Assembly: GCA_965198235.1 (NCBI GenBank)
Contig: OZ240248.1
Span: forward strand, 1,568,001-1,632,000
From: Candidatus Poribacteria bacterium
GTDB taxonomy: Bacteria; Poribacteria; WGA-4E; WGA-3G
Length of the DNA stretch: 64,000 bases
Direction: 5' to 3'
Below the pieces are notes generated by a model. It searched no databases, was not told where the DNA came from, and worked only from the letters and a program-made list of their open reading frames with translations. Position numbers and translations under genes: made by a program. Positions 1 through 63,408 of this stretch are shown here, in pieces (positions within the stretch are counted from its first letter, which is position 1; each line of letters starts with the position of its first letter).

Positions 1-54
1 TTATAGTGCGCAAGCCTATAGAGGCTTGCGGGACAATGCCTCCGTCTTTTTTTC

Positions 55-858
55 TTACTCTACCGCAACAATTGCGATCTTCCATCGGTCTGCTTGCTGA
101 ATGAGCACATCGGCATCCATCACAAAAGTTCGCCGGGCTTCCACTGCTAACGCACTCGCTTTAACTTGATGCAGCACCTCAAGCGTCTGCATTCCCACCG
201 TTGGCACATCAATACGAAAATCGTGGTTCTCGGCGGCTGCTTTCGCAACAACGATTCCCTGCCTTCCCAAGTTTCCTCCCCTCTGAATAGTCGCATCTGT
301 CCCTTCAATGGCTTCCATAGCAAGGACAATCTGATTCTTAACGACAACCGTTTGCCCGATATCCATATTTGCTATCTGCCGGGCGATACTGATACCGAGT
401 TCAATATCTGTCCATTGGCTCGCTGTGGGTTGTCGAGTTGTTAAAACGCTGGGTTGTGGAAGAAGGTGTTGGAGATACTGATCTTGGGTGAGGATGGTAA
501 GTCCGGCGGATTCAAGGTGGTTAAGTGCTGCGTTGACGATTACGGAAGGTTTTTCGCGTCGGTTCTGTACGAGGATTTTAATGGTGGTCGTATCAATTTG
601 AAAGGGTCGAAGGAGGATGTTTTTTTCGACTTTCCCGATGATCACAGTCTCTTTCACGCCTGAATTGAGAAGCGTTCGGGTGATCTTTTGAATCTGACCC
701 ACCCCATAAGTATGAAGTTCGCATGCGATTCCGGCGAAGCGTTGCGCGTCGGACTTGGTAATTTGGATGATAACGGGTTGTCGCTCATGGGCAACAGCGG
801 CACGTGCTAATAGCACCGGCAGCTCACCTGCGCCTGCAATAATACCCAATTTTTCCAC
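55..858 (-). CDS. lpxI: UDP-2,3-diacylglucosamine pyrophosphatase LpxI
   Basis: GIIAGAGELP N-terminus, DIGQTVVV, EAIEGTD and DVPTVG motifs; next to lpxA. Confidence 0.9.
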   Translation of the reverse strand: MEKLGIIAGAGELPVLLARAAVAHERQPVIIQITKSDAQRFAGIACELHTYGVGQIQKITRTLLNSGVKETVIIGKVEKNILLRPFQIDTTTIKILVQNRREKPSVIVNAALNHLESAGLTILTQDQYLQHLLPQPSVLTTRQPTASQWTDIELGISIARQIANMDIGQTVVVKNQIVLAMEAIEGTDATIQRGGNLGRQGIVVAKAAAENHDFRIDVPTVGMQTLEVLHQVKASALAVEARRTFVMDADVLIQQADRWKIAIVAVE

Positions 859-883
859 ACTTTCGCTCCCCGTATAGTTTCAA

Positions 884-1168
884 TTTTTTAACTATTGGCA
901 CTTGGGCATCGTTCCATTACATTCCACGATGGTTTCTGGTGAAGTCAGGAACCTTTGAACTCTTGGAGCGGGTTGGAATTGACCAAAAACCACTGCGAAA
1001 CGAAATTATGCCTTAAATGGCATAATTTTGCTTCGCATTGTCCCGCAGGTTTCCTATAGAGGCTTGCGCAGAATGCTTTACATTTGGAGCAGTTTAACCA
1101 TCAACTCGACTCCGTTATAAATGTTAAAGCACGAGTTGATGGTTAACAGAGTCCCGTAGTTAGAAAAT
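884..1168. repeat. Family A intergenic hairpin element with nested modules
   Basis: TTTTTAACTAT...TAGTTAGAAAA ends; arm CATCG-15nt-CGATG at 907-931; nested AAATTATGCC-TTAAAT-GGCATAATTT palindrome and CAACTCG...CGAGTTG module. Confidence 0.85.
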
Positions 1169-1245
1169 CTTTACACGGCTTTTGGTTAGAATAGTGTTCT
1201 CAAAGAGGTTATGAATAATGAGCCGTTGCCTAAGAATTTTGCAGG

Positions 1246-2070
1246 CTAACCACTCGGAGCGCGGTTCGGTTGACTAAACCCTATGCCACGTTTGGAGGTT
1301 TCTATAAATTTAAGTAAATATTCAACTTCCGGCGTTGGTTCGAGTGTTTCTCTGACTCTGGCGACGGCATGCTTAAGTGGTAGCCCCGAGCGGAACAAGG
1401 TGCGGAACGCCTTCTTTAACGCCGCGAGTGTTTCAGGTGTGAGCTGTGACAAAGGGTTAATCCGTGATGTTCGGATACCGATACGGTTGAGGTCCCGAAC
1501 ACGCGCCGGTTGTCCGGCGGAGAGGGCAAAGGGTGGGATATCCTGCACGATCTTTGAGAAACCGCCTGCCATTGCCATCTTGCCTACGCGCACATATTGG
1601 TGCAGTGCCGCATGCGCCCCCAGTCGAACGTCATCTTCAATCACGACATGCCCCGCAAGCGAGACAAAGTTTGCCATGATTATCCTATTGCCGACGATGG
1701 TGTCGTGTGCAAGGTTAACCCAATTCATCAGCAAATTATTGTCCCCAACGATAGTTGCTTCCTCTTCAAAAGATGACCTGGAGATGGAGACGTATTCGCG
1801 TAGTATATTGCGATTCCCGATTTTCACGTAACTCCGCCAACCCCCGTACTTTAGGTCTTTGGATTCGTTACCGATGGTAGCACCGAAGAAGATTTTGCAT
1901 TCTTCGCCGATAGTTGTCCATTTTTCAACCTGAACATGGGGGCCGATCACCGTGCCGCGCCCTATATGGACATCTTCACCGACAAGACTGTAGGGGCCAA
2001 TCTTAACCCCTTCTTCCAACGTTGCTTTTGGAGAGATAATAGCCGTAGGGTGAATGTTGGTTTCTAGCAC
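1246..2070 (-). CDS. lpxA: UDP-N-acetylglucosamine O-acyltransferase LpxA
   Basis: IHPTAII start, hexapeptide repeats, QDIPPF and LNRIG motifs; lpx cluster. Confidence 0.93.
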   Translation of the reverse strand: MLETNIHPTAIISPKATLEEGVKIGPYSLVGEDVHIGRGTVIGPHVQVEKWTTIGEECKIFFGATIGNESKDLKYGGWRSYVKIGNRNILREYVSISRSSFEEEATIVGDNNLLMNWVNLAHDTIVGNRIIMANFVSLAGHVVIEDDVRLGAHAALHQYVRVGKMAMAGGFSKIVQDIPPFALSAGQPARVRDLNRIGIRTSRINPLSQLTPETLAALKKAFRTLFRSGLPLKHAVARVRETLEPTPEVEYLLKFIETSKRGIGFSQPNRAPSG

Positions 2071-2091
2071 AGATGTCCCTCCCTAATCTTG

Positions 2092-2245
2092 TTTTTAAAT
2101 GATCAGCCCTCGCGCACCGTTCCACTACGTTTCACGATGGTTACTGATTTGATTGAAGCCGCCTCTGTTGCAAAAACCCTGTTTGAATACATCGGAAACC
2201 ACCGTGTAATGAAATGGAGCGGTGCCCAGGTGTTAATCATTTAAA
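2092..2245. repeat. Family A element (plain form)
   Basis: Two inverted arms with 15-nt loops (TTCCACTACGTTTCA; TGTAATGAAATGGAG at 2205-2219) around a unique core. Confidence 0.8.
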
Positions 2246-2266
2246 GAATGTTAAAAGGACCACGGT

Positions 2267-3553
2267 TCAGACAGAAGCCAATACAATTGACAGTTCCGCC
2301 TCTGTAGCGAGTTCGTCTCCTACATAAACGCGTCCTTCGATGCGTGCAATTCTGCTCCGTAGTTGGGCGACCTCTATTTCCAGTCGAAGCTGGTCCCCCG
2401 GAATGACAGCGCGTCGGAATGTTGCCTTATTGATCGAGCGAAAATAGCCAAGTTCACCTTCCTTACCGATGTCTCGAAGCACAAGCCATGCAGCGAGTTG
2501 TGCGAGTGCTTCAATCTGTAACACCCCAGGCATCACAGGGCGCGTCGGGAAATGCCCCTCAAAAATTGGTTCGTTATAAGTCACGTTCTTGATGCCTACG
2601 GCGCGCTTTTTACTTTCGTATTCAATAACTCTATCGACCATGCACATCGGATGTCGGTGCGGCAACACTTCATAAATATCCATTACCTCAATCGGTTCTT
2701 GAACAGGTGCCTGTTGAAGGTGGCCCGCCTCAGCGAGGGCTTGCACAAATTCCGCATGGAACATATGTCCAGTCCGCATCGCGAGAACATGTGCCTTCGG
2801 CATGTGTCCGGCTAAATAGAGATCGCCAATCAAATCAAGGATTTTATGTCGGACAAACTCGTCTTCAAACCGCAGTGGTGTACTGGATTCACCTGCGGCA
2901 TTGATAACAACGACATTATCGTAGGTTGCCCCTTTCCCAATACCGAGTGCCTGTAGTGCTTCAATTTCATTTTCAAAACAGAAACTCCGTGCTGGCGCGA
3001 TGTCGGAAGCGTATGATTCTGGGGTTATTTTGAATGTCGCTGTTTGTGGTTTCGTCTGTGGATGCGCGTAAACGAATGTCACCTCTAACGCGTCGGCAGG
3101 TAGCAACACGAGCTGCTTATCCGCTACAGAAAGCGCGAACGGCTCCGTGACCTCAATAAACTTCCGTGGGACATCTTGTGAGACAAGTCCTACTGCTTCG
3201 ATATTCTCGACATATGGTGCCGCGCTCCCATCAAGCCCAGGAGGTTCCGATGCGTCAAGCTCCACTGTCGCGTTGTCAACGCCGAGACCGCCGAGTGCTG
3301 AGAGGATGTGTTCGACGCTGCTAACCGTTGTATCACCGTTGCGTAGACTGGTACATCGTGGCAGAATATCTGCCCAGTTCTCCTGACATACCTTCACTTC
3401 TGGGGCACCAGCGATATCCACCCGTCGGAAGAGGATGCCAGAGTCTGCCGGGGCTGGTTTCAAGGTTAATGTCACGGGTTCCCCTAACATTAACCCTTTT
3501 CCTGTCATTGTTATTTCGTTTTGAATTGTTTGCTGTGAATCAGCTTTTGCCAT
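2267..3553 (-). CDS. lpxC: Bifunctional LpxC / FabZ
   Basis: VEHILSAL and RHKILDLIGDL (LpxC), followed by LPHRHP and GHFP..PVMPGVLQIEALAQ (FabZ). Confidence 0.95.
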   Translation of the reverse strand: MAKADSQQTIQNEITMTGKGLMLGEPVTLTLKPAPADSGILFRRVDIAGAPEVKVCQENWADILPRCTSLRNGDTTVSSVEHILSALGGLGVDNATVELDASEPPGLDGSAAPYVENIEAVGLVSQDVPRKFIEVTEPFALSVADKQLVLLPADALEVTFVYAHPQTKPQTATFKITPESYASDIAPARSFCFENEIEALQALGIGKGATYDNVVVINAAGESSTPLRFEDEFVRHKILDLIGDLYLAGHMPKAHVLAMRTGHMFHAEFVQALAEAGHLQQAPVQEPIEVMDIYEVLPHRHPMCMVDRVIEYESKKRAVGIKNVTYNEPIFEGHFPTRPVMPGVLQIEALAQLAAWLVLRDIGKEGELGYFRSINKATFRRAVIPGDQLRLEIEVAQLRSRIARIEGRVYVGDELATEAELSIVLASV

Positions 3554-3574
3554 TCGCTTTTGTCACCTTCTGTT

Positions 3575-3770
3575 TTTTTTACGATTGACTCTGGTCACTG
3601 CTCCATAAGTAAAACAAAGATAAATTATGCCATTTAAGGCATAATTTCATTCCGCAGTGGTTTTTGGTGAAGTTATGCCCAGTGCGGTTCGGAAATCCAC
3701 CTACCGGGGCTTCGGGACCGAAAACCATCCTGAAACGAAGTGGAACGATGCCCAGATTCAATCATTTAAA
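3575..3770. repeat. Family A element with nested palindrome
   Basis: Same arms plus AAATTATGCCATTTAAGGCATAATTT at ~3622-3647. Confidence 0.8.
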
Positions 3771-4800
3771 ATCCGCATTTTTCGTATCGTTCTATTGTGT
3801 TCTGAAAGCGTCTTTGAAAAGTGGTGCTTTCCCTCGCCTATCGCCACGAAGTAGAGATAGTCTGTTTTTTCGGGCCGCAGTGCAGCTATAATTGAATCAA
3901 TACCTGGATTCGCAATGGGACCAGGGGGTAAACCCTTGTGTTTATACGTATTGTAAGGCGAATCAACCTGTAGATCGGCTTTCGTCAAGGGTCTTTCTGG
4001 GTTCCCTAAGGCGTAAAGTACCGTTGGATCTGCCTGAAGCTTCCACTTTCGTGTAAGCCGGTTATGGAAGACACTTGAAATACGGGGGCGTTCCAGTCCA
4101 GATTGTGCTTCTTTTTCGATGACAGAAGCGAGCGTTACGATTTCGTGACGGGTACGCCCTAAATTTTGCGCCTCCTCGTCAAATTTTTCCGTCCATTGCT
4201 GTTTAAATTCATCAAGCATCATCTCAACAACTTTTTCAGTTGTTGTGCCTTTTGCGAATTTGTACGTATTCGGAAAAAGGTAGCCCTCTACAGTTTTGTC
4301 TGCAAGCCCGTACCGCTTCAACAAACGCGAGGATTCGGAGGCTTTCCGAAATGCCTCGGCTGTGCCAAAGCCGCTCATTTCCCAAAGTTCAGCAATAGCA
4401 GATGTCGTTAAACCCTCTGGCACTGTCCAGCTAACCAGCGTAACCTGCCCCTTTTCAAATTCATTGAGTAGATCCCACAACGCCATGTTCCGCCGTAACA
4501 TATAAGTTTCAGCTTGTAGGTGTCTACCAGTCCCTCTATATCGGACAACTATACGAAAGGCGTATTCGCTGCGTATTAGTTTTTGTTCAACCAATCGCTT
4601 TGCTATTGCCCGCGAACTACTCCCTACTGGTACGTCGAAATTAACAACCTCTTCTGACGATGTGGGTGGTAGCGTCAGGGATACCCCAATCAACAAAACA
4701 ATGAGGCAGAGAGCACCAAGACAGCAGAGCGTCAGTATGCCTATCTTAATTTTCGTGTTTTCGAGAGAGAAGTATCTTGACGACTTGGTGATTGGACAGA
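3758..4800 (-). CDS. mltG: Endolytic transglycosylase MltG (start uncertain)
   Basis: EGYLFPNTY, LASVIEKE, LQADPT, SPYNTY and GLPPGPI motifs; the TM helix lies upstream of the TTG at 4696. Confidence 0.88.
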
Positions 4801-4854
4801 TTTACCTTCTACTCCCTGTTCTGTTTGTGCAGACCCCATGTATTTTCATAATTC

Positions 4855-5002
4855 TTTAAATGATAGGCCCTCTGACTGTGCTCCATTACATTCCGCACAG
4901 GTTTTCGCTAAGAACGCACGAGTACTTTTTATCCTACATTTCTTAGAAAAGACCATCGTGGAACGAAATAGAACGATGAGCATTTGACCCTAGTTAGAAA
5001 AT
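4855..5002. repeat. Family A element
   Basis: Arm CTGTG-CTCCATTACATTCCG-CACAG at 4876-4900; ends TAGTTAGAAAA. Confidence 0.78.
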
Positions 5003-5048
5003 TGTTGGAGGGTCACCCGTAACACCTTGGCATATCCTAATGGAAAGA

Positions 5049-5495
5049 TCAGGAATGCTCTGTGGGTGCTGCAGGATTGATCTCCCGATTGCTATTCAAA
5101 TAGTCTTTGAGAATAATTACCGCTGCTACCTCGTCAATAAGTTCTTTCTGTGCTTTTGTGTCTTTGTTAAGATCGCGCAAAATCTCTTCTGCTTCAGCGG
5201 TTGTAAAACGTTCATCCTGAAATTCGATCGGAATGTCAATTACATGCTCCAAGCGTTGGGCAAACTTCTGGATCTTCTTCGCTTGCGTGCCAATAGAGCC
5301 GTCAAGAGAGATAGGCAAACCGATAACGACACGTTCCACCTTGTGGATGGAAATGAGATCCGAGATAGCAATTAAATCAACCTGCCGATTTTTTCGGGTT
5401 AGTGTACACAGTGGATGTGCCGCAATACCGAGAGCGTCGCTGAGCGCAACACCAATGCGTGTATCACCAACATCTAATCCGAGTAAAATTGCCAT
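5049..5495 (-). CDS. ruvX: RuvX/YqgF family nuclease
   Basis: LGLDVGDTRIGVALSD, VIGLP, DERFTT motifs; ATG at 5495 (the longer ORF start lies in a repeat). Confidence 0.93.
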   Translation of the reverse strand: MAILLGLDVGDTRIGVALSDALGIAAHPLCTLTRKNRQVDLIAISDLISIHKVERVVIGLPISLDGSIGTQAKKIQKFAQRLEHVIDIPIEFQDERFTTAEAEEILRDLNKDTKAQKELIDEVAAVIILKDYLNSNREINPAAPTEHS

Positions 5496-5635
5496 TTTTA
5501 AACGATTGCTCCTGGGCAAAGAAACACCCAAGCAAAAACCCCTCCATTTCATTGCGGGCAGGTTTCTGATAAAGTCCGTAACCCTTTCAAACCTAAAGCA
5601 GGTTCTCTACGTGCCCAGACCCAATAATTAAAAAA
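5496..5635. repeat. Family A element with AAAAACCCCAAGC-type words
   Basis: Core ~5570-5610 is an approximate reverse complement of the core at 56858-56903. Confidence 0.75.
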
Positions 5636-9522: not shown

Positions 9523-10281
9523 ATGATTAAAACCTTAAGTTTGACGAAATATTTCGGTAAATTGTGTGCTGTAGATGCATTGACACTTGAGGTGGAGGCA
9601 GGTGAGATATTTGGATTCCTTGGGCCTAATGGGGCAGGAAAGACGACGACAATCAACATGCTGACAGGCTTACTCCGTCCGACATCTGGCACTGCAACGC
9701 TTGGCGGTTATGACATTCAGAAGCAGAGTTTACAGGCGAAAGCGATTCTCGGACTGATGCCCGATACGCCTCAACTTTATGAAGCATTGAGCGGTAGACA
9801 GTTTGTCCGTATGATAGCGGATTTATATGAAGTACCACCGGGGCAAGCCGAAAATGAGATGGGCGTGCTACTTGAACAACTTGAACTTACCGATGCTGTT
9901 GACGATCAGATTAAAGGGTATTCTTACGGCATGCAGAAGAAGATTCTGCTGATCTCGGTTCTCGTGCATCATCCGCGGATTCTTTTCCTTGATGAACCGA
10001 CTAGTGGTCTGGATCCGAGGAGTGCACGCACTGTCAGGGAAATCCTGCGCGAACGTTGTGAGCAGGGTTCTACTGTATTTATGACAACACACATCCTTGA
10101 AATTGCTGAACGTATTTGCGATCGAGTCGGTATTATCAGTAGGAGTCAACTTATTGCTGTGGGAACTCTTGCGGAATTACAGCAGAAAAAGCAGGAATGC
10201 CACGGACGACCCGTTGATGTCAGTCAGGACCAGACGGAGACACTTGAGGATATTTTTCTCGATCTGACGACAGATTTTTAA
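9523..10281 (+). CDS. ABC transporter ATP-binding protein
   Basis: GPNGAGKT, YSYGMQKK and LDEPT motifs. Confidence 0.93.
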   Translation: MIKTLSLTKYFGKLCAVDALTLEVEAGEIFGFLGPNGAGKTTTINMLTGLLRPTSGTATLGGYDIQKQSLQAKAILGLMPDTPQLYEALSGRQFVRMIADLYEVPPGQAENEMGVLLEQLELTDAVDDQIKGYSYGMQKKILLISVLVHHPRILFLDEPTSGLDPRSARTVREILRERCEQGSTVFMTTHILEIAERICDRVGIISRSQLIAVGTLAELQQKKQECHGRPVDVSQDQTETLEDIFLDLTTDF

Positions 10282-10365
10282 ATTTTCCTTGCGGTTCGGT
10301 GAAGTGAGTTGAATGAACCACGATCCGCTCCGTGGATCCGCACTCCACTTCGTTACGTGCTACTG
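10280..10365 (-). repeat. Family B element
   Basis: Minus strand reads GTAGCAC..GTGCGGATCCACG..CGAACCGCAAGGAAAATT. Confidence 0.7.
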
Positions 10366-10367
10366 AC

Positions 10368-10481
10368 ACCTATCAAGAACCTGCTCGTAATGAAATTAGG
10401 TTTCCTTAAATGGCATAATTTTGCTTCGCAGTGAGAATGCTTTACATTTGGAGAGCAGTCCAGGAGCCCATAGTTTAAAAC
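10368..10481. repeat. Family A right arm with nested modules
   Basis: CTGCT-CGTAATGAAAT[insert]TGGAG-AGCAG; ends just before ATG 10482. Confidence 0.78.
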
Positions 10482-12146
10482 ATGTTAAAAGATGTGATAA
10501 TTCTGCTAAGAGCGGATTTGCAAGGGTGGTTGAATGGTCTTAGGCGCGGTGGGGAAGCGTGGCGAAAAGCCGCTTTAAAGGGTATAGGTTACCTCGTGTT
10601 CATCGTTGCACTATCAGTGTTAGGTAACTCCCTTTTCACGCATTTACGGCTCACTGAGGCAGAGCCGACGCTTCTGCTGGGTGTAATTAATGGGTTCATG
10701 GTCTTCGGGATTATCGTTGTTGCCAAGGAGTTGATGGAGAGTTCGCTGAAGAGTCTATATGAGGCACCGGACACCGCGTTGTTACACGCTGCACCGATTC
10801 AACCGGTTGCAATTTTCGGATATAAGTTCATTCATCTCACTATCACGCGCTTTCTGAGTATCTTCTGTTTTTTGGGACCCCCATGGGTAGCGTTCGGTCT
10901 GATATTTGGATTGCCGTGGCATTTTTACGCGGTGCTGTTTCCAGTGTGCTTGTGTCTTCTGGTAATGATCGCGAGTTATGTTACCATCAGCGTGATGTTG
11001 ATTGCGCGTTTCTTTTCATCTGGGTGGCTCCTCGCAACACTCAAGGTACTCGGCACTGCAATCGGCGTAACGGTGGGTTTTCTGTTATCGTTGACACTGT
11101 TTTTCGAGTTTGAGCCGATCCACATAAAGCAATTTTTGCTCAATTGGGCTTCCGAGAGAACGACGGATACGACTGCTTCGTGGTATCCACACGAGTGGAT
11201 TGGGGAACTTCTGCTAAGTTGGGTGACTGAATCCACAATTGGTGTCCGGTTGAGATGGGCACTCGGAGGTATCGGAGGAAGTCTCACCGCTGCCGGAGTG
11301 GCAACGCTCGTCGCGCGACTGATTTATCAGCGCGGTTGGGAAAATATCCGACAATTGAAAGCCAAGCGTAAACCCGTGCGGAATACCATTGTCCCGCAAG
11401 CCTCTATAGGCTTGTGCCAGTCTAAGGCATCGCATCTGGAACGCATACGGCGGACCCTCGGGCGTGGCAAAATACGCTCTATGATGCTAAAGGACTTTCT
11501 CATTTTCGTCCGGCACAGTGGACGGCTAATTGCTATTGTGATGCTCACACTTTTTTTGGTAGTTCACATCGCTATCTTACTCGTGCATGAAGGTAGTGCG
11601 GATACGAACGCTGGGTTGGTTCTTACTGTGCAGATAGTTCTTTATAGCATGCTTATTACCTTCGGTATCAGTTGTAACGGTCTTCGAGATGAAGCGAAGA
11701 CATGGTGGATGCTGAAAGCCTCCCCTGTTACGCCGAAGTTAGTGTTCAAGAGTAAATTCCTGACTGCGCTTCTCTGTGCGCTGATGTATGCTGAATTCTG
11801 GTCCCTGTTCGCTGTTTGTCTGCTCCGAATTCCGAGAGATGCTTGGATACCTGTGATGCTAACGCCTGTCTTAACACTCCCGACAGCGTGTGCAATGAAT
11901 ACGGCGATTGGGACATTGCCGTGGATGGCAGAATTGACACATCAACCGAAACCGATCTTGCGAGTTTTAACGTTCACAGTGACGCTTATCGTTGATGTGG
12001 CACTTGTCCTCGCGCCGGTGATAACATGGTATACGGAAAGTCTCATTTCGTTTATTGGATTGGTAATCCTTCTTGCGGGTGTATTTGCTGTGTCCTATAG
12101 ATGGGGAGTAGGGAATCTCCGCAGGTTGTTGGTTGCGCAACAGTAA
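10482..12146 (+). CDS. Putative ABC-2 type permease
   Basis: Multiple TM segments in two halves; follows the ABC ATPase. Confidence 0.8.
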   Translation: MLKDVIILLRADLQGWLNGLRRGGEAWRKAALKGIGYLVFIVALSVLGNSLFTHLRLTEAEPTLLLGVINGFMVFGIIVVAKELMESSLKSLYEAPDTALLHAAPIQPVAIFGYKFIHLTITRFLSIFCFLGPPWVAFGLIFGLPWHFYAVLFPVCLCLLVMIASYVTISVMLIARFFSSGWLLATLKVLGTAIGVTVGFLLSLTLFFEFEPIHIKQFLLNWASERTTDTTASWYPHEWIGELLLSWVTESTIGVRLRWALGGIGGSLTAAGVATLVARLIYQRGWENIRQLKAKRKPVRNTIVPQASIGLCQSKASHLERIRRTLGRGKIRSMMLKDFLIFVRHSGRLIAIVMLTLFLVVHIAILLVHEGSADTNAGLVLTVQIVLYSMLITFGISCNGLRDEAKTWWMLKASPVTPKLVFKSKFLTALLCALMYAEFWSLFAVCLLRIPRDAWIPVMLTPVLTLPTACAMNTAIGTLPWMAELTHQPKPILRVLTFTVTLIVDVALVLAPVITWYTESLISFIGLVILLAGVFAVSYRWGVGNLRRLLVAQQ

Positions 12147-14440: not shown

Positions 14441-14640
14441 GCGCGTAAGCCCAAGCATCGCGCCGGGCTGGGTATACGGAGAAGATCGTTCTCGTAAAAC
14501 TAACCTTATCGAACCGCAAGGAAACTTAGAAATAGGAATTGGATAGAGCGCGTAAGCCCAAGCATCGCGCCGGGCTGGATATACGGGGAGGATCGTTCCC
14601 TCAAAACTGGCCTTATCGAACCGCAAGGAAAATTAAAAAT
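14441..14640 (+). repeat. Tandem pair of Family B elements
   Basis: GCGCGTAAGCCCAAGCATCGCGCCGGGCTGGRTATACGG...CGAACCGCAAGGAAA starts at 14441 and 14548; second copy ends at ATG 14641. Confidence 0.9.
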
Positions 14641-16114: not shown

Positions 16115-17380
16115 CAAAACCTTTGGGCTGGAAACCCCACACTTTAGTGTGGGGAGGAAAGCCCCCTCCTATAATTAAAGTTCAGACGCGTAAGCACCCT
16201 AAAATCAGATTCTTGCGCACTTTGAGTGAGGCGTTGGTTTCCTTCCAAAGAATACAGAGAAATACCGGTTTTCCCAAACCCGCTAATACGGGTCAGCCCA
16301 TGCTTGACATGCTTGACGAGTGTATTCTTTACCAATCTGTTCCAAGTCGTGCCACCATAGCGGGGGCGTTTACCGCCTTTTTGAGGATTTTGCCGGTGCA
16401 GTTCTCGCCTGATAATAGGGATAGGGGAGATACAGAAAACATCTCTATTATCAACCCTATCTTTGCCGCCTATTCTATGATATACCAAGCACCAACTATC
16501 TACACAATGCGCTTCAAACGTCTCCGCAAGTTTTTTAGAAGACTTCTTCAAACCCAACCTATCACGAATCTCTTTCGTCTCCCACCCTTGGAGTGTCAAT
16601 AACTCCCACCGCTTCTGAATTTCAGTGTAGAACCATGCTTTGCCAACTTCGAGCGGACTAAAAGACGTATTCCACTTTTTCGCATGCTTTATCGTCCTCG
16701 CTTTTATGTTCTCAACACAAACATGACGGATAGGGAACAACCCTGATAACCAGTCTAATATCCGAAGTTTCCACTCCCAACGGGCGCGCGTGCCTGCGGG
16801 GATACGTGCTTGATTTGCCAGACGATTCATGCGGTTTTTGCGATTCGGACATTTCCGAGAACGCCTCCCTCTGCGCAACTCACGACGCTTTTCAACTTTC
16901 TTACCCACCTGGGTGTGTGCGTCTGCCTGCACATTCAAATACGTATGTGACTTGCTTTTCACGGTAAAGCCTTCTTTCTTGCTACCGGGGTCTACCCCTA
17001 CAGCGATCTCTTGTGTTTTTCTCTCAGAAGGCTCTTTGTTGAGACGGATACAATAAATACCATTATCCCAGTAGGGGGTTGCCTCGTCTCGCTTTATCAA
17101 CTTGCGCGCACGGGCGGAATGCATGGGCATGAGTATTTGACCGTCTTTTGCTTTTACAGGAACAAACATAAGTTTCTAATTCTCTTACAAAAGTAAGGTG
17201 TGTATTGCCCCTTCCAGATCACATATCCAAGGGGAATCAGACGAGGGGAGTATCCAAAACATTGTACTGGCTGCCACGCCGAGATATGCGATATATTACT
17301 GTAGACAACGGTTTAACTTATGGAGAGGTGCTTGGCAGGCACTTCGCAGAAGCCTCACGCTTTAGCGTGAGGTAGTTGAC
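16115..17380 (-). mobile_element. IS200/IS605-superfamily non-autonomous IsrB element
   Basis: Begins GTCAACTACC; subterminal hairpins CCTCACGC-TTTA-GCGTGAGG (17353-17372) and CCCCACAC-TTTA-GTGTGGGG (16135-16154); no target duplication; removal restores vapC. Confidence 0.88.
16144..17169 (-). CDS. isrB: IsrB (RRXRR, HNH-less IscB relative), predicted RNA-guided nickase
   Basis: PLMP-like ILMP, RuvC-I GVDPG, Arg-rich bridge helix RRELRRGRRSRK, RuvC-II VENI, RuvC-III HCVD; no HNH; 341 aa. Confidence 0.85.
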   Translation of the reverse strand: MFVPVKAKDGQILMPMHSARARKLIKRDEATPYWDNGIYCIRLNKEPSERKTQEIAVGVDPGSKKEGFTVKSKSHTYLNVQADAHTQVGKKVEKRRELRRGRRSRKCPNRKNRMNRLANQARIPAGTRARWEWKLRILDWLSGLFPIRHVCVENIKARTIKHAKKWNTSFSPLEVGKAWFYTEIQKRWELLTLQGWETKEIRDRLGLKKSSKKLAETFEAHCVDSWCLVYHRIGGKDRVDNRDVFCISPIPIIRRELHRQNPQKGGKRPRYGGTTWNRLVKNTLVKHVKHGLTRISGFGKTGISLYSLEGNQRLTQSAQESDFRVLTRLNFNYRRGLSSPH

Positions 17381-17400
17381 TGTCTGGAATAAGATTTCCT
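17175..17400 (-). ncRNA. Predicted omegaRNA (5' guide from the flank plus ~200-nt scaffold)
   Basis: Non-coding stretch between the element end (GTCAAC at 17380) and the isrB start, the established position in IscB/IsrB loci; ends inferred. Confidence 0.7.
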
Positions 17401-17578
17401 TTCTGCCGTAATTGATCTTTGATGATTCCAAACCACTGTGACGTTTCTAAGTCGCAAGAAAAGAGTGGGAATCTCTGCGTCTGCAGCCAAGAACATTTTA
17501 TCGGTATTTTCCACTTTTTCTTGAATTACTTTGTCCGCGGCAAACATCCCGATAATGATATTCGTGTCTAAAAGGTAC

Positions 17579-17895: not shown

Positions 17896-20800
17896 CTACC
17901 GAATTCCAGTTTTCTCAAACATCAAATCCAAATACGATTTTTCATTGTTGAAAAGTTGACTGGTGGAACCGTCTTCTGTTTTTTCATGCCAGTTTAATCG
18001 GAAGATATTATATGCCAACATATTCTCTTCGACCCACTCAACGGATTGTCTGTTTCCTAATTTGGAACTATCGCGTAGCAGCAAAAACGAATTGAGATGG
18101 AATGTCCGACCCTGTTCAGCCTCTAACCGTTTTTCAAGAATAATAAGTGTTTTATCCTCAGATTTTCGAGCGAGTTTAACCTTTGGATGATTTTGGTAGT
18201 CAAGTGTCTCGTCGTCGATAATACCACGCTGCCCTTTCGGATCGATGAAGAGGATGTGGGTTACCGTTTGTTCTGTATCTACTATCCACAACACAAAATC
18301 GGGATAGTAACTGCCCGAATCATTTTCCAAATAGATACCAATCTTCTGCACATTCCGCATCAGATAGAACTCATATCGTTTATTCCTGCCGTAGGATCGC
18401 TTAATATAATTTGTCAAGTCTTCAACGAATTTTCTTTCACCTGCATTTAGTCTATCTGGTGAGACTTTGACTTCGTTTGGTTCGTTCTCTCTGATATCCT
18501 TCGGGTCTAATAGGAGTGGGTTGTAAATATGCCGATGATGTAGTTCTAAAAATAATTGCAATTCTCTCTGGATCTGTACTTCCGGGTTTTTACGTCGCCC
18601 CTTTGATATATCTCTTTCCTTTTCTGCTTCCTCAATTTTTGCAAGAAATTCTTCATATTCATCACGATCTTTAAATTCCTTTGTTACTGTGTATTCATAG
18701 ATGAAGTCATCCTGGTTCAAAGGTTCATAAATATAGTTAGCACGATTGATATGGGCGTTGATGCGATTTCGTAGTTTACCAGTGACATCAATTACAACTT
18801 GGCGATTGAGCCTATCTGTCCACGCGATTTTATTTTTGCCCGCTTTCCGGTAACGAATTCCCCCAACAAGTGCCAGAAAATCTGAAATAGCGGGTTCGCT
18901 GTTGCCCTCATGATAAAGTTGCAGATGATTTTTCTCCGCCTCGCGGCGGATGATAGTAGCAAGTCTTGCCCGGTTCAGATAACAAGAATATTCTTTGTTA
19001 TATTTCTGCAGATATTCGTAGATATTCGGTGCCTCCTTCTCTTTGTCTGTTCGGTAATCCAACATAATTTCTTGCCAATTGTTGATAACTCCATGTTTTT
19101 CAGTGTTATCTTCAAAATAGGTATAATTAATTGATTTGTCACGGCTGAACACCACACACTTGATTGAGTTATCGCTGCTACCGATTTGCTTAAAAATGGG
19201 CAATTTGCTCTTATATTCCTCGAAGTGAATGGTTGTACCATTATCCACTTTAAAAAAAGTTGAATTTACATTAATTTTAAAGGTGTGATAAAGCCGAATG
19301 CCGCCCATGTGGACTTCCTTAAGAAAATGTTCAAGGTAGCTTCGCTGTAAGCTGAAAACGGTCAGCGTTTCCAATCGTCGAATCTCACTTTCTCTATCTC
19401 TTTTACGTGGAAGTGGGTAGGGGTAGTCTGGATCTTGCTCAATATACCGACGTTTTCCATCGCCACCTTTTCCACCTAACCGAACGCCGCGTCCGAAGAT
19501 CTGTATGATCAAGTTGCCTTTAGAACTTCCCAAGTTAATCAAATCAATTACGGAGAGACGATAAGAATTCCATCCTTCCGCAAACTTACGACTTCCAATA
19601 AGTATGTTTATCGGGCTGGTTTCGTTGTCGAGGTTTTCAAAATGGAGGTTTGGATCGGCGATTGATTCAACGCGTGTTTCAATGCAGTCGTTTTCAATGC
19701 TGTTGTAAAAACTCGCAGCGTCCCCAATGTTGATCATTCCCCACTTTTCGCCATCTCCATAAGAGAGAAGCAATTCACTATTGTTGTCTGGATTGCGTGC
19801 AACGACTAAGCGCCCAATAATATCACTACCAAAAATGGATCTGAATTTTTGGCGTTCCGCCTCGCTCAGTGCCGCAAGGTAATTGAGAACTTTCTGGATG
19901 TCAGAGACTTCATCGTTATCGTTTTTGCCTTCGTCCTTCGGATTTTCGACTGTATGTCCCATAAATGCCATCAAGGGACGATGCACAGTTAGATCAATGT
20001 CTTGCGATTCGTCGTCACGAACTCTTTTGAATGTTTGTAACTTTTTCTCCATCACCCAGAAACACTCGTCTAAGTTGTCTTTAATTTCTTGGTCGGATTC
20101 AGTAGCCACTGCATCTGCAGCAATCGGTTTGAAATAATGGTCTTTACCGTACCCATCGCTATAGAAGCGAGCATAATCGTACCGGTAGATGATTGCGCTA
20201 TCATATTCGTCCGCCAGTTCTTTAGCGATGTTGTGGAAGGTGGCTGAATATTCAAATAGGAAGGAATTTCCCACGTTGAGACGGTTCCGAAGTTCTCTGA
20301 ATTTGCCAGATTGCTGGCTTGTTAAGCCGATGTGTGCTTCGTCTACTAAAATGAGTCGGCGAATCTCTCCTGCATCCGGTAAACGGAAATAGTCGTCCTC
20401 CTTCTGCAAAAGCCCCTGCGTAGTGTCAATTGTAAGTTCAATCCGATTGCTATAGGTTTTGTTGAGTTCACGGACGTATGGCTCTAACTCGCGCTCATGC
20501 TGCTTAATCAGGTTTGCCAAGGGGGTCGTTAAGAAGATTTGAAGACGAGCATTGTCTTTTTTACAAAAATGGTGTAGGTATTGGAGGATATTAAGATGCA
20601 TGATGTGGGTTTTCCCACTGCCTGTCGCCATCCAATACGCCAGCATCCGTTTGTCTTCTTGTTCACTGCTTGTGTCAAATCCTTCTGACTGTTGTCGATC
20701 GGCAAAAAAACATTCGGTGAAAAGTAGAGCCAACACCTGATAGTAACGGAGTTTAAAAGCCTGCCTTGTCAGATAATTGTAATCTTCTAAGAAATCCTGA

Positions 20801-20940
20801 ATTCGCTCTAACGATTCAACAGGCAGTTGCAACGCTTGTTCAGGGTCATACAACTGAATTATTTCCTTTATCCCGTCATTTCGGATGTCAATCCCATTTT
20901 CGGTTAGGATTTTTGTTTCGTAGTCTTGATAAAGTGCCAT
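17896..20940 (-). CDS. Type III-like restriction subunit (Res)
   Basis: MATGSGKT, DEAH, QIFGRGVR; C-terminal YPDF..IDPKG nuclease motif. Confidence 0.88.
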   Translation of the reverse strand: MALYQDYETKILTENGIDIRNDGIKEIIQLYDPEQALQLPVESLERIQDFLEDYNYLTRQAFKLRYYQVLALLFTECFFADRQQSEGFDTSSEQEDKRMLAYWMATGSGKTHIMHLNILQYLHHFCKKDNARLQIFLTTPLANLIKQHERELEPYVRELNKTYSNRIELTIDTTQGLLQKEDDYFRLPDAGEIRRLILVDEAHIGLTSQQSGKFRELRNRLNVGNSFLFEYSATFHNIAKELADEYDSAIIYRYDYARFYSDGYGKDHYFKPIAADAVATESDQEIKDNLDECFWVMEKKLQTFKRVRDDESQDIDLTVHRPLMAFMGHTVENPKDEGKNDNDEVSDIQKVLNYLAALSEAERQKFRSIFGSDIIGRLVVARNPDNNSELLLSYGDGEKWGMINIGDAASFYNSIENDCIETRVESIADPNLHFENLDNETSPINILIGSRKFAEGWNSYRLSVIDLINLGSSKGNLIIQIFGRGVRLGGKGGDGKRRYIEQDPDYPYPLPRKRDRESEIRRLETLTVFSLQRSYLEHFLKEVHMGGIRLYHTFKINVNSTFFKVDNGTTIHFEEYKSKLPIFKQIGSSDNSIKCVVFSRDKSINYTYFEDNTEKHGVINNWQEIMLDYRTDKEKEAPNIYEYLQKYNKEYSCYLNRARLATIIRREAEKNHLQLYHEGNSEPAISDFLALVGGIRYRKAGKNKIAWTDRLNRQVVIDVTGKLRNRINAHINRANYIYEPLNQDDFIYEYTVTKEFKDRDEYEEFLAKIEEAEKERDISKGRRKNPEVQIQRELQLFLELHHRHIYNPLLLDPKDIRENEPNEVKVSPDRLNAGERKFVEDLTNYIKRSYGRNKRYEFYLMRNVQKIGIYLENDSGSYYPDFVLWIVDTEQTVTHILFIDPKGQRGIIDDETLDYQNHPKVKLARKSEDKTLIILEKRLEAEQGRTFHLNSFLLLRDSSKLGNRQSVEWVEENMLAYNIFRLNWHEKTEDGSTSQLFNNEKSYLDLMFEKTGIR

Positions 20941-20997
20941 TAGTTTCTCTAAACATCTGTGGAAGTAATATGCATTTGTGTTCCTATTATTTTTTTG

Positions 20998-23900
20998 CTA
21001 CGCTTCAAGAGTGTCCCACACCGCTCCTGTGTCAAAATCCGATGTTGAGATGAGATGAATCTGTCGCAGCTCCGAATTCTCAAGCAATGCTTGCTGATGC
21101 ACATCACAGTTAACATCTAGCTGTGTGACACCCGCTAACTGTTCATCTGCGAGAATTTCCAATAACTGAGGCGTATCGTCCTCCTCGGTTACATTGCGGA
21201 ATACAACCAGTCGCGTACCACTTTGAACAACTCGGTATACCTGATCATTTAAATCAAACCGCAAACGACGCTGAACCGGGAGCCCTTTGAGATAGCAATA
21301 AGTTTCCAAGACATCTACGTAGTCTTCTCTGCTATCCTTACCATACGTAATCCGATTAGAGAAGGGGTCGCGCATATCCATCATCAGCCGAGTCTGCTGT
21401 TCCTCGGGCCGATAGAGATATTTGACGGGGAGTTCTGTTTTCGTATTATAATTTGGAGGTGATGTCGTGAGGTTGTTGAGGACATCCTCATACTGTTCCA
21501 ACTGTTGATATTTAACAATGCCGACGGTGCCATCAATTTTCTTTTTTGCGTCCGGTTTGCCATCTCTCCAATTTGCGGAGAACATGACGCGCCGGATCCG
21601 CTCCTTCAAGGTGCTATCAAAGTAGTCTCCGATCTCAACAAGGATAAATTTGCGGTTGCCGTTATCGATTTTGTTGAGGTTAAGGATGGCATGCCCCGTT
21701 GTGCCACTACCGGCAAAGAAGTCAAGCGTAATTCCTTTACCATCATTTGTAACTGCCCAAACGAACTTTTCATATAAGTCAATAGGATGAGAGTATGGGA
21801 AATTTAACCCTAATGCGTCCAATTGCATTTTGCCTCTTTCGCCTGAGGGCAAGACTGAGGATAACTCGCCGACCAGATAGTTTTTCAAATAAATTTTGAG
21901 TCGAGGTTGTTTGGTTTCATCGGTACCGAAAATAATGCGGCCTTCATCCAAAAATTTCTGCATGTTTTCTGGAGTTCTACTCCATCCAGTCGCTGGAACT
22001 GGACAAGATTTACGAGTGATTGGATGAATCAATGGTTCGTGGAATTTAGGGTTGGTCAGCAATGCCGGGGCTCCTATACTGACATCTGAAAAAACCTGTC
22101 CCGCATCGTCAATTTTTGAATAAGCCCGTTCTCCACCACTCAACTCAGGTTTGTTCGTAATCCAATTTCTAAATTCTTTGCGGCACTCCTCTGTGACACT
22201 GCTATACTGTTTTATTAATGAGGCAGCCTTTCTAAGAATCGCTTCACGGTTGGTTGGTATAGCTTTGAGTTTTACGGTTCCTTTAGAATAGCACACAACA
22301 TATTCATGTTGTGTGGCTATCGTATTTGTTCCGAAAACAGGGTTTCTTTTGTCCCAAACAATAGTCCCCTGATTTTTCATCTGCATGGTGCTGAATACTT
22401 GAAATAGGTTTTCATATTCGTTCTCGTCAATATGGCAAAGGATGCAGCTATCTGGTGCCATTAACTGTTCGGCGAGGGACAACCGGTTTTCCATCATCGT
22501 TAGCCAACTGGAATGCTGATAATTGTTTTTATAGAGGAAGCCGCTTGTGTTGGTGTTGTAAGGCGGATCAATGTGGACACACCTTATGGAGTTTCGGTAT
22601 TTTTCCATAAGTAGGTCCAACGCCTGAGAGTTTTCACTGTTGAGTAACACGCCATCAATTTGCGATTCTAAATCTTTGAATAGGGCAAGAATCTCATCAA
22701 CAAAACCTTCCTCAAAATGCTGTGTGTCCAATGGTAGTGTTGGATATAATCCTTCAAGCAACGGCAGTTGCTCTGTAATATCGATACCGAAGGTTTCACG
22801 CCAGTCGGCAAGTTGTGCCTCGTTTTCCAGAATCTGTGAGATGAGTGCTTCCCGTTGGACTGTGTCATCTTTTGTTGCCTCTGAAATCTTACCTACAGAG
22901 ATGAGATAGTCGGTAGAAACAACCTTTTTCTTCATCAAGAATAGCTGCTTCTGAAATGTCTCCACAGCAACAAGCAGTGCAATTACTTCGTCTGTAACGC
23001 TGCGGAATGCTGTTGCTATAGCGAATGCCGGGTTTTCAGAACTGAGATTCAAAAGCGTATCCAAATCGCTGAGGATGATGTTCTGGATATAGCGGCGTTG
23101 CTCGGTTTTCAGAAATTTATCCAAATCTTTATGGATAAAGTAGTCTGAATCCATGCCCACGAAGAAGGTGTTCAGGTTTTTGTCAAGGGTGTGGAACCGT
23201 TGCACTATAAGGCGTTTTTCTAATACTGCTTGCCGTTCTGTATTGTTTTTGCCGAGTCCTTTGAAATCGGGATGGCTTACCAATTTCCCCGCGTAACTTG
23301 ACAAGTCCAAGTGCAACGCGTTGATACCTTGCAATCTGCCGTTCTGCACCTTGTCGTAAGTGTTCGCAAGGTCCTTAAAGATGGGTTTGCCCTGTTCCTC
23401 CCCTTTCTTAGGACGTTCGTGGAGATAGATGTCTACATCATCCGTTTCACTGAATATCTGAGTGCACATCTCACGGTATATCTCAACTTTTGGCGTTGAG
23501 GTTTCTGCCAAGTGAAGGATAACGCGCCATGTCTGTTCGGTATCGTCGGGTTTGGGAGGATCAATCCTACCAAAGCGATAATGTTTGAAATCGTCACGGT
23601 TATTGTTTTGTGCAATACTGGAACTTGCTTCTCCCTCTAACCGATACTCAATCCGTTTGTCTTCAACTTCAAAAGCAACACTGTTGAACCCTGTCGCCGT
23701 TTTAACGTAGTAGCTATCGCGACATTTCCAGTGGAAAAGTGTATCTGTCCCGTTGTAGTCTGCCTCATCGGGGTAGTCCACCTTATAGAGTGCAGTACTC
23801 CTGTCATTATAGCCGAAGTCACCATCTCGGTAGTATCCTTCAAAAAAACTATGAACATGATTATAGACGCGGAAAGCGAGTTTGGATTTGAGTTCGTCCG

Positions 23901-24261
23901 GGTCCGTTTCCAATGGAGCGATAAGTTCTTCCTTATCTTCGGTCTGGAGAAAATCTATCAGTTGTTGAGAGTTCTCGGCGATGTTTTCAAGCCAATCTCT
24001 TTGTCTACGCCCGCCTTCCTCAGCGACGAATTCCCTAACCTTGGTGAGTTGGCTATCGTAGAGTGTCTTAGTGACTTCTACGAGTGCTTCATCTACTATA
24101 GTTGTTAACTTTTCGTCAATGAATTGATTAACCTCATCGCGCTTAATTTTGAGGATACGGAAGATACCGAAGTCGAGGTCGTTATGTGCGAAGTGAAACA
24201 TATCGCGAAGTTTCTCGCGGAGGGTGTTGAGTGCTTCGGTTGTTGAGTTTGATTCGGGCAT
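20998..24261 (-). CDS. Type III-like methyltransferase (Mod), 1087 aa
   Basis: IDPPYNT and DFFAGSGTT motifs; directly upstream of Res. Confidence 0.88.
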   Translation of the reverse strand: MPESNSTTEALNTLREKLRDMFHFAHNDLDFGIFRILKIKRDEVNQFIDEKLTTIVDEALVEVTKTLYDSQLTKVREFVAEEGGRRQRDWLENIAENSQQLIDFLQTEDKEELIAPLETDPDELKSKLAFRVYNHVHSFFEGYYRDGDFGYNDRSTALYKVDYPDEADYNGTDTLFHWKCRDSYYVKTATGFNSVAFEVEDKRIEYRLEGEASSSIAQNNNRDDFKHYRFGRIDPPKPDDTEQTWRVILHLAETSTPKVEIYREMCTQIFSETDDVDIYLHERPKKGEEQGKPIFKDLANTYDKVQNGRLQGINALHLDLSSYAGKLVSHPDFKGLGKNNTERQAVLEKRLIVQRFHTLDKNLNTFFVGMDSDYFIHKDLDKFLKTEQRRYIQNIILSDLDTLLNLSSENPAFAIATAFRSVTDEVIALLVAVETFQKQLFLMKKKVVSTDYLISVGKISEATKDDTVQREALISQILENEAQLADWRETFGIDITEQLPLLEGLYPTLPLDTQHFEEGFVDEILALFKDLESQIDGVLLNSENSQALDLLMEKYRNSIRCVHIDPPYNTNTSGFLYKNNYQHSSWLTMMENRLSLAEQLMAPDSCILCHIDENEYENLFQVFSTMQMKNQGTIVWDKRNPVFGTNTIATQHEYVVCYSKGTVKLKAIPTNREAILRKAASLIKQYSSVTEECRKEFRNWITNKPELSGGERAYSKIDDAGQVFSDVSIGAPALLTNPKFHEPLIHPITRKSCPVPATGWSRTPENMQKFLDEGRIIFGTDETKQPRLKIYLKNYLVGELSSVLPSGERGKMQLDALGLNFPYSHPIDLYEKFVWAVTNDGKGITLDFFAGSGTTGHAILNLNKIDNGNRKFILVEIGDYFDSTLKERIRRVMFSANWRDGKPDAKKKIDGTVGIVKYQQLEQYEDVLNNLTTSPPNYNTKTELPVKYLYRPEEQQTRLMMDMRDPFSNRITYGKDSREDYVDVLETYCYLKGLPVQRRLRFDLNDQVYRVVQSGTRLVVFRNVTEEDDTPQLLEILADEQLAGVTQLDVNCDVHQQALLENSELRQIHLISTSDFDTGAVWDTLEA

Positions 24262-30507: not shown

Positions 30508-30639
30508 TTTCAGTACTCCTTTTCATTTTGTTTGCAGTCTCGTAGAGACTTGAAAAAAAATAACATTTGTGTAATACTTAAATTGTATAACAATTTTTTT
30601 TAATTTGCAAATCTTCTAACTATCAAAATCTGAGCGTCG

Positions 30640-31537: not shown

Positions 31538-31649
31538 CTTGGAACATTGTCCTGCAAGCCTCTATAGGCTTGCACCAGGAAAGCGGATATACGGAAAAGA
31601 ACTAATTAACCAGAACTCACCGAACCGAACCGCAAGGAAAATTAAAAAA
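31534..31649 (+). repeat. Family B element with nested CAAGCCTCTATAGGCTTG module
   Basis: GTAGC..GCGGATATACG..CGAACCGCAAGGAAAATTAAAAAA then ATG. Confidence 0.75.
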
Positions 31650-33249: not shown

Positions 33250-33375
33250 CGTTAGGTTATGAGAGGTTGCTAACTTTACCAGAAACCATTGCGTAATGAA
33301 ATTAGGTTTCCTTAAATGGCATAATTTGTCTTTGCTTTACATTTGGAGCAATGCTCAGAGGCAATCGTTTAAAAA
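33250..33375. repeat. Family A right half
   Basis: CATTG-CGTAATGAAAT[insert]TGGAG-CAATG; near-identical to 35859-35947; abuts ATG. Confidence 0.85.
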
Positions 33376-37471: not shown

Positions 37472-37476
37472 GAACA

Positions 37477-63406: not shown

Positions 63407-63408
63407 TC

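Follow-up and report, generated by a model that had tools for sequence, protein, structure and literature searches.

Gene content and repeats of the window

The window analysed here, a 64-kb stretch of a Candidatus Poribacteria genome, has a G+C content of 47.8% and an ordinary bacterial gene content. It carries the cluster lpxI-lpxA-lpxC/fabZ-yceG-ruvX on the minus strand (positions 55-5552), and its further genes include those for a sulfatase and for WD40, PhyH and Laminin_G_3 proteins. A search of the whole window against Rfam 15 gave no matches at the gathering score and none at E values up to 1, and a tRNA/tmRNA scan of the window found none. Canonical 12-mers seen at least three times numbered 211, whereas 20 simulated sequences (first-order Markov) contained 1.3 on average and 5 at most. 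These repeated 12-mers covered 18.3% of the 10,219 non-coding bases versus only 0.98% of the 53,781 coding bases, the two being separated with a gene map in which start positions had been corrected by hand. Within the window a 15-mer had four matches (0.08 expected) and a 26-nt hairpin, M1, was found in four exact copies (0.00 expected). The strings that a first-pass annotation of this DNA had listed were all present at the positions it gave for them, and none of them is expected by chance.

The comparison was extended from this 64 kb of the genome itself to 1.06 Mb of relatives, obtained by scanning species-representative genomes with the LpxC/FabZ protein. This gave 55 loci (designated L001, L002, etc.), all of them from Poribacteria MAGs and with 72-96% identity to the LpxC/FabZ query; the source genome of the window is apparently not among them. 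Modules of 16, 30, ca. 40 and ca. 53 nt are repeated within the window and are present in as many as 32 of the 56 sequences. An assembly artefact was considered and dismissed, as these modules appear again in independent short-read and long-read MAGs. The coordinates given below are those of the window, and the sub-coordinates of some parts were counted by hand from the printed sequence.

A paired hairpin unit in the intergenic regions

What the first-pass annotation had called the plain loop belongs to a conserved unit of ca. 65 nt, here named LH. This unit has a conserved flank on its 5' side, then a stem of 6 bp that encloses the loop (13 nt, likewise conserved), and lastly a conserved tail that runs out into a series of A. 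There are ca. 25 copies in the window according to nhmmer, with a model built from the window copies themselves, so that any comparison of LH density is biased towards the window. Twenty of the copies are arranged as 10 back-to-back pairs, with the minus-strand unit on the left, the plus-strand unit on the right and 17-42 nt between the two. A pair amounts to an imperfect palindrome of ca. 170 nt, and whole intergenic regions are filled in this way. A structural scan for LH gave 87 rows. A good many were chance matches in which coding DNA supplied a long "insert", and only the rows with LH flanks were used.

Plain pairs are found at 2092-2253 (minus unit 2092-2148, plus unit 2186-2253 with the plain loop at 2208-2219), where they fill the lpxC/fabZ-lpxA spacer, at 4847-5007 in the yceG/ruvX spacer, at 37476-37635, with a start ATG in the tail of the plus unit, and at 56796-56960. 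A plain minus-strand copy at 879-946 faces the lpxI start and is the partner of the most elaborate copy in the window, described below. The minus-strand LH at 5494-5576 has a short G-array unit just after the loop and the ruvX start ATG in its tail, and a single plain copy on the plus strand (63347-63413, with the second plain loop at 63368-63379) faces the 3' end of a gene.

In its plain form the LH hairpin has little thermodynamic stability (z -0.9), and its stem covaries strongly: 95.5% of the cells are paired in the 22 plain copies, five of the six pairs vary on both sides (33 cells), none of 500 shuffles matched this value and slid controls fell to 20-55%. We also considered the long-range pairing between the two partners seen in the minimum-energy fold of a pair (z -6.8). 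The stems of the two partners differ from each other in every pair listed while each local stem covaries, and for this reason the conserved structure is the local hairpin and not the long-range one.

The tails have some properties of gene leaders. They contain a Shine-Dalgarno-like purine run, in 8 of the 25 copies they include the ATG with which the next gene starts, at a fixed offset (-5 to +6), and on the other strand they supply TAA stops. In 13 of the 25 cases the tail precedes the start of an ORF, versus 8.8 ± 2.5 for random positions, so that a general link with gene starts is weak; the remaining 12 point to the end of a gene or to nothing. A sigma-70-like promoter inside LH was unconvincing by eye. 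Together with the strong covariation, the fixed ATG and the purine run would suit a functional structured leader, of RNA or DNA, with short- and long-loop subfamilies, whose inserts would be tolerated expansion segments exchanged by homologous recombination instead of mobile units. However, about half of the tails are not in the position of a leader at all, and Rfam gave no match even at E up to 1. The contents of the loops bear on this explanation further.

Nested inserts in LH loops

Eight LH loops in the window are filled, with inserts of 39 nt (two copies), 42 nt (two copies), 50, 53, 79 and 82 nt. In all of them, and in the filled LH of L001, L004, L008, L010 and L040, the insert falls between the same two positions of the loop (13/13). 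The deepest nest is in the plus-strand LH at 976-1173, made of flank and stem strand (976-996), the 5' part of the loop (997-1006), a 79-nt insert (1007-1085), the 3' part of the loop with the other stem strand (1086-1093), a further module D (1094-1146) and the LH tail (1147-1173). The nest begins with the M1 hairpin (1003-1028), a 10-bp perfect palindrome with a 6-nt loop (-7.6 kcal/mol, z -3.5), whose outer 4 bp make use of the last four bases of the LH loop. It is followed by the first nine bases of a 16-mer (1029-1037), by a variant of module C that splits this 16-mer (1038-1070) and by the 16-mer end with the 3' tail common to the loop inserts (1071-1085), all of them on the plus strand. 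That is, module C lies in the 16-mer, which lies in an M1-tail insert, which lies in LH. The variant module C has a 5' arm longer by 3 nt and its loop is inverted with respect to the canonical copy at 56471-56502.

That canonical copy, with a split 16-mer and a variant arm instead of the M1 arm, is part of the 82-nt insert (56453-56534) of the minus-strand LH at 56420-56564. The 16-mer is uninterrupted in two other copies. One is the plus-strand LH at 10372-10487, where a variant arm and the 16-mer (10422-10437) make up a 53-nt insert (10397-10449) and the start ATG of an ABC_tran_2 gene lies in the tail; the other is the minus unit of the pair at 59700-59885, in a divergent spacer, with an M1 arm and the 16-mer (59722-59737) in a 50-nt insert (59710-59759) and a plain plus unit at 59821-59885. 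For the filled copy of this pair (59767) our exact-stem rule overshot, and it was read from the MAFFT alignment instead. The shortest inserts, of 39 nt, are in the pair at 3574-3776 (insert 3605-3643 in the minus unit, 3574-3672; plain plus unit, 3714-3776) and in the pair at 30638-30933 (plain minus unit, 30638-30701; insert 30763-30801 in the plus unit). The latter plus unit also holds a copy of module D (30810-30906) that is in turn interrupted by a G-array (30852-30895). Inserts of 42 nt with the variant arm are present in the plus-strand copies at 33274-33380 (33303-33344) and 35846-35951 (35875-35916), both with a start ATG in the tail. The variant-arm form of the insert is thermodynamically weak.

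The first-pass annotation had read these forms as four successive steps of nesting. All the forms do exist, but in the MAFFT alignment they are not strictly additive, with one to three substitutions at each junction. The two arm types and three middle types (short; 16-mer; 16-mer split by module C) are found in all six combinations among the eight filled copies. Moreover, the copies at 999 and 30755 have stem, loop and module D in common and differ in the depth of the nest, whereas those at 999 and 56542 have the deepest nest in common and differ in stem, arm and D. This assortment is incompatible with a tree of unique events, and also with deletion from one ancestor.

Derivation of all variants by deletion from one long ancestral element was the case that the first-pass annotation had itself named as refuting its reading. 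Deletions do occur, as the LH of L001, L004 and L040 have lost the part of the loop between an internal direct repeat. But the shorter insert forms contain bases that the longer ones lack, all six combinations exist, the outgroups are empty at two sites of module C (a coding sequence and a terminator loop, see below), and the empty coding alleles match the outgroup beyond what excision could recreate. A deletion-only origin is therefore rejected, and we give it hardly any credence.

A more serious alternative dispenses with transposition altogether and attributes the nests to template switching during replication and short-patch gene conversion at hairpins, through palindrome extension, correction of quasi-palindromes and microhomology-guided ectopic copying. 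The junctions are indeed untidy: besides the substitutions, the end of the added module overlaps similar bases of the host, a pattern of overlap and replacement that suits this explanation, and neither LH nor the loop inserts show an evident target-site duplication. When the deepest nest is folded, the initial portion of the 16-mer base-pairs with LH, on the 5' strand of its stem and loop, like an inverted copy of that strand, and the inverted loop of the module C at 1038 would find a place here as well.

As for the insert as a whole, filled LH copies all share the last five bases of the loop and only 3 of 13 empty copies do. Such loop and stem features common to the filled copies are what the structured leader with expansion segments would lead one to expect, and so is the confinement of the M1-tail insert, 13 of its 14-17 copies being located in LH loops. 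On the other side, a relative of the M1-tail is present outside LH in L043 (score 55, null maximum 35) and, judging from borderline scores of 30, 39 and 36, probably also in the lpxI terminator loop of L042, L048 and L049. For this particular unit, it is quite possible that LH copies already filled have spread as a subfamily, or that gene conversion has taken place between copies of LH.

Modules in unrelated contexts

Module C is a 30-nt sequence forming a strong hairpin (z -5.9). We found it at no fewer than eight unrelated sites, with ends constant within 1-2 nt and with mutually dissimilar flanks. Apart from the LH nests, it is present in the loop of the terminator hairpin downstream of lpxI (7-38, minus strand), in frame inside the ABC_tran_2 coding sequence (11389-11416, plus strand) and in the spacer after a Dabb-domain gene (31547-31574, plus strand), that is, in a terminator loop, in coding sequence and in other intergenic DNA. 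At least four more of the sites are in the relatives. The left flanks have a final A in common at 7/7 sites, and no target motif longer than this one base was found at the seven. Neither was there a consistent target-site duplication at module C: a two-base repeat fits two to four of the seven sites and does not fit the others. The claim of site specificity made in the first-pass annotation is only partly supported: the ca. 40-nt insert is always at one position of the LH loop, but module C has no motif beyond a single base.

Some copies of module C have arms lengthened by 3 nt. In the window (1038-1070) and in the coding sequences of L003 and L006 only one arm is affected, in the terminators of L001 and L008 both are. 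Lengthening of one arm or both is the pattern expected from arm-to-arm correction and speaks for template switching. Nevertheless, this process would be expected to leave ragged ends, while those of module C are the same within 1-2 nt at eight or more dissimilar sites, including a coding sequence.

The other modules are also found in different surroundings. The 16-mer is present in many varied non-LH contexts in nine other loci, and twice outside LH in the window, at 61018-61033 (plus strand), where together with the three preceding bases it forms a 6-bp hairpin of its own (z -2.7), and at 62494-62509 (minus strand). Module D is 53 nt long in the copy at 1094-1146 (plus strand), between the LH stem and the tail, and has perfect terminal inverted repeats of 15 nt (-13.7 kcal/mol, z -6.3). 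Another copy is located in a different spacer at 36860-36909 (plus strand), a D-like hairpin in the opposite orientation and with different outer ends at 62343-62386 (minus strand), both with hand-counted limits, and in L027 module D is in the loop of another hairpin. M1 and C, in contrast, are simple hairpins and not elements bounded by terminal inverted repeats. Module E (30 nt, thermodynamically weak) occupies LH loops of another clade and also other hairpin loops. Short tandem G-arrays are among the inserted units too, also outside LH, and give nests of their own, G-array in D and G-array in E in an LH loop.

The modules are thus found in unrelated hosts, as had been claimed: module C at eight sites or more, the 16-mer in nine other loci, D and E in other hairpin loops and an M1-tail relative outside LH. 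The occurrence outside LH of C, D, E, the 16-mer and the G-arrays is hard to reconcile with expansion segments of a leader, and we regard that explanation of the inserts as rather improbable.

Empty and filled states at orthologous sites

Comparison of orthologous intergenic regions across Poribacteria MAGs, proposed in the first-pass annotation as a check, revealed empty and filled states of the same hairpins. For the LH located upstream of ABC_tran_2, L007 and L039 have an empty loop, and there are 38 additional nt in L008, 39 in L040 and 53 in the window, with the same flanks and stem throughout. One pair of this stem is C-G in L007, L039 and L008, T.G in L040 and T-A in the window. Another orthologous LH is empty in L033 and filled in L030. 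In the lpxA-lpxI spacer the loop is plain in L017, contains module E in L016, L027, L029 and L032, and contains E with a G-array inside it in L036 and L052. The clade of the window is nearly a polytomy, so that gain of an LH insert is not always separable from its precise loss.

Two sites of module C can be followed in many relatives. Six of 46 orthologues of the ABC_tran_2 protein carry it as an in-frame addition of 9-10 residues, while the 40 others, including all the distant ones, are without it. Placed on the tree of the lpx genes, this distribution requires four changes. The empty coding alleles match the outgroup sequence, and because of this we infer a single insertion followed by recombination or lineage sorting. 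As for the lpxI terminator, 11 rows belonging to the clade of the window have module C in its loop, and the hairpin is intact and empty in 20 rows that include all the outgroups, a distribution for which the tree requires two changes.

Whole spacers can be unrelated in species that have 96% identity in the proteins on either side. Orthologous LH units may differ in four of five stem bases beside proteins of such identity, suggesting that copies have been overwritten, and the central segment of a spacer is inverted in L002 relative to L040; both observations would be natural results of template switching and gene conversion. Against this stands the conservation of the module sequences themselves, which are kept across species down to ca. 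70-80% protein identity. On balance, we consider that an origin of all this variation without transposition is possible but unlikely.

In summary, the modules are real, dispersed, mostly hairpin-forming sequences that are present in unrelated hosts, vary at orthologous sites and assort independently. They are separate units, each with its own history, that were acquired in place by hairpins already present, and sites without similarity to each other are open to them. The idea of small independent modules is borne out by the separate contexts, by presence and absence at orthologous sites and by the six arm-by-middle combinations. The stronger proposal, that they move independently and site-specifically, is supported as regards independent gain; the junctions are not clean, and a fixed target motif is supported only in part.

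Comparison with known small repeats

By analogy, the nearest known kinds of sequence would be the small dispersed repeats (SDR) of the Nostoc group, the REP/BIME mosaics and Neisseria REP2. The SDRs of Nostoc punctiforme and its relatives, the subject of work by Elhai and colleagues in 2008, are reportedly 21-27 nt long. To our knowledge, they are the only well-described case of repeats far below the size of MITEs, and we know of no enzyme or mechanism for them. Like the Poribacteria modules, they are said to be well under 100 nt, to be nested in each other, to be associated with hairpins and short tandem repeats and to be present or absent at orthologous sites. The Poribacteria modules differ in their size (16-55 nt), in the phylum and in having a covarying hairpin, LH, as main recipient. 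The resemblance to Nostoc pointed out in the first-pass annotation is apt, as one of analogues at most.

REP/BIME elements are described as short extragenic palindromes and inverted doublets that combine with other short motifs into mosaics (PMC3116915, PMC3184786), and, from titles referenced in PMC3116915, REP hairpins are known as insertion targets. LH has a certain likeness to REP, BIME and REPIN, with 10 back-to-back pairs and with repeats strongly enriched outside genes. However, in LH, the reverse of REPs, the stems vary while the loop and the flanks are conserved. In contrast to the REPIN-RAYT system as outlined there, there was no RAYT among the window ORFs scanned and one Poribacteria module sits in coding sequence. 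[quoted passage not shown] LH, with its internal stem-loop and with the ATG at a fixed offset in 8 of 25 tails, partly recalls these repeats, but it is shorter, it comes as a rule in back-to-back pairs, and some half of the copies point towards the end of a gene.

The palindromic elements of Rickettsia, of ca. 150 bp, are presented in PMC10969869 as often intragenic and in frame in unrelated protein genes. Module C shares with the elements so presented the palindrome and the in-frame addition of 9-10 residues to the ABC_tran_2 protein; it is only 30 nt long, however, and one coding insertion was seen. Finally, the 15-nt terminal inverted repeats and long hairpin of module D, the imperfect palindrome of the LH pair and the presence of IS200/IS605-superfamily genes recall the accounts of MITEs and IS200/IS605-derived palindrome-associated elements in PMC3184786 and PMC10969869. 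Unlike the MITEs of these accounts, there is no consistent target-site duplication at module C, LH or the loop inserts, and in the 64 kb of the window and 1.06 Mb of relatives no parental insertion sequence with the same ends was seen. This lack of duplication agrees with what they say of IS200/IS605-type elements, but the fixed target of 4-5 nt is absent, as seven left flanks of module C share the last base only. In searches of the literature on Poribacteria and intergenic, palindromic, MITE or dispersed repeats, including PMC11602168, we found no description of these repeats.

A possible mechanism

We think it probable that these sequences belong to a system of miniature repeats, non-coding and lineage-specific, of the Poribacteria associated with sponges, with modules being added successively into hairpin loops. 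LH loops, other hairpin loops and the modules themselves would receive the M1-tail unit, the 16-mer, C, D, E and the G-arrays one by one. The modules would be non-autonomous and copied in trans as defined units. Selection may then spare only the insertions into loops or those in frame within tolerant segments of proteins, so that the location in loops could mirror the survival of insertions rather than targeting.

A Pfam scan of 55 window ORFs detected no transposase, RAYT or Y1 gene, and a laxer rescan of seven of them (six without a family hit and the RRXRR/IsrB ORF) did not add any. There is an IsrB homologue, of the IS200/IS605 superfamily, at 16144-17169, and a TnpB element in L012, the ends of which are different. 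The likeliest route, which we put forward tentatively and at somewhat less than even chances, would be the handling of single-stranded hairpin DNA at the replication fork by an HUH/Y1-type enzyme (RAYT or IS200/IS605-like). The constant ends of module C at unrelated sites and the strong hairpins of M1, C and D are observations in favour of an enzyme acting on single-stranded hairpins, as are the absence of duplications and the presence of genes of the IS200/IS605 superfamily. On the opposite side are the lack of Y1 or RAYT among the scanned window ORFs, of a fixed target motif and of tidy junctions. Template switching guided by microhomology is the main alternative and only a little less likely. 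For the LH inserts in particular, gene conversion or template switching instead of true transposition is possible.

A more specialized version would be a dedicated loop-targeting system, in which modules of 30-45 nt are copied single-stranded into hairpin loops, with an HUH/Y1 enzyme as catalyst or with maintenance through homing driven by the nucleases of the resident IsrB/TnpB elements, and with LH as a reusable landing pad. We find it improbable. If it were true, these modules would be among the smallest mobile DNA known, and leaders, terminators and even proteins would be remodelled in a modular way.

Significance for Poribacteria

Whatever the route, the turnover of spacers is fast, as illustrated by unrelated spacers between genes that are 96% identical. 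Through the repeats, genes acquire start and stop codons, ORF calls become longer, spurious ORFs arise and peptides are put into proteins, so that the annotation, assembly and strain typing of Poribacteria MAGs are affected. For the host, the consequences are probably neutral to mildly regulatory, through the remodelling of 5' leaders, terminators and gene ends.

Here we have the same phenomenon as that of the Nostoc-group repeats in an unrelated and uncultured phylum of sponge symbionts. With dozens of closed Poribacteria chromosomes, target preference, strand bias and co-occurring enzymes are testable by comparison alone.

Further short modules and tandem arrays

Besides the hairpin modules, a further short module, K, combines a core that resembles a Shine-Dalgarno sequence with an A-rich end, and was found in the window at 10281-10298, 14510-14524, 14617-14634, 31626-31643, 52830-52843 and 52930-52952. 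Its 59 matches are spread over 32 of the 56 sequences, and its position depends on its orientation: one way round it adjoins start codons, the other way round it adjoins stop codons.

A smaller unit still is common to two unrelated hairpin modules, M1 (carried by the ca. 40-nt insert of the LH loop) and C (30 nt). The 5' arm of both can contain an identical 8-nt string in place of 5 nt beside the loop, as seen in the window at 1047-1054, 10398-10405, 33304-33311, 35876-35883 and 56526-56533 and, among the relatives, in the copy of module C within the ABC_tran_2 coding sequence (L003 and L006) and in that of the lpxI terminator loop (L001 and L008). In some copies the string is confined to a single arm and in others it is mirrored on both, and it is similar to the complementary sequence of the 5' flank of LH.

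The G-arrays are tandem repeats of 11-15-nt units, each made up of a G run, a T run and a short variable end, and they vary in length (window 5519-5553, 30852-30895, 31027-31173, 35764-35821, 56591-56657, 61218-61311 and 63237-63282). Among the 55 related loci, at least 23 contain such arrays. Their places of insertion are directly after the LH loop, within module D and, in relatives, within module E.

The repeats distort the calling of ORFs in the window (56434-56766 on the minus strand, 37488, 59696, 5552, 31124 and 61373-62500). One ORF of 110 aa consists wholly of repeats, and several ORFs called from the first start extend upstream across LH units, the true start being the ATG in the LH tail.

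Genes of the IS200/IS605 superfamily and their neighbours

The gene at 16144-17169 (minus strand) codes for a 341-aa protein that has an RRXRR domain and matches 8dmb, a solved IsrB protein, with E 1.8e-33; IsrB belongs to the IS200/IS605 superfamily and acts as an RNA-guided nickase. A search of the ca. 400 nt 5' of this gene (17170-17578) against Rfam did not find a guide-RNA family. Beside it, at 17896-24261 (minus strand), lie two large neighbouring genes, coding for a ResIII/DEAD helicase (1014 aa) and an N6_N4 DNA methylase (1087 aa), that resemble a cluster of the restriction or defence type. Among the relatives, a TnpB (OrfB_IS605) element sits within the ABC spacer of L012 (2209-3857), and the spacers of L028 and L032 contain short elements with inverted ends similar to those of this element.

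Deletion, inversion and possible exchange in spacers

In three LH copies (L001 9801-9853, L004 4961-5013 and L040 6257-6311) the loop has become shorter by a deletion between a direct repeat inside it, so deletion by slippage also takes part in shaping these units. On a larger scale, the central ca. 70-110 nt of the lpxA-lpxI spacer, LH unit included, are in inverted orientation in L002 versus L040, and the inverted segment is bounded by short inverted repeats. L004 is the closest relative of the window, yet its spacer upstream of ABC_tran_2 (5109-4962 region), compared with those of L013, L016, L018 and L020, is laid out as in a distant clade. This incongruence between gene tree and spacer content points to either recombination between lineages or repeated colonisation of the same site.
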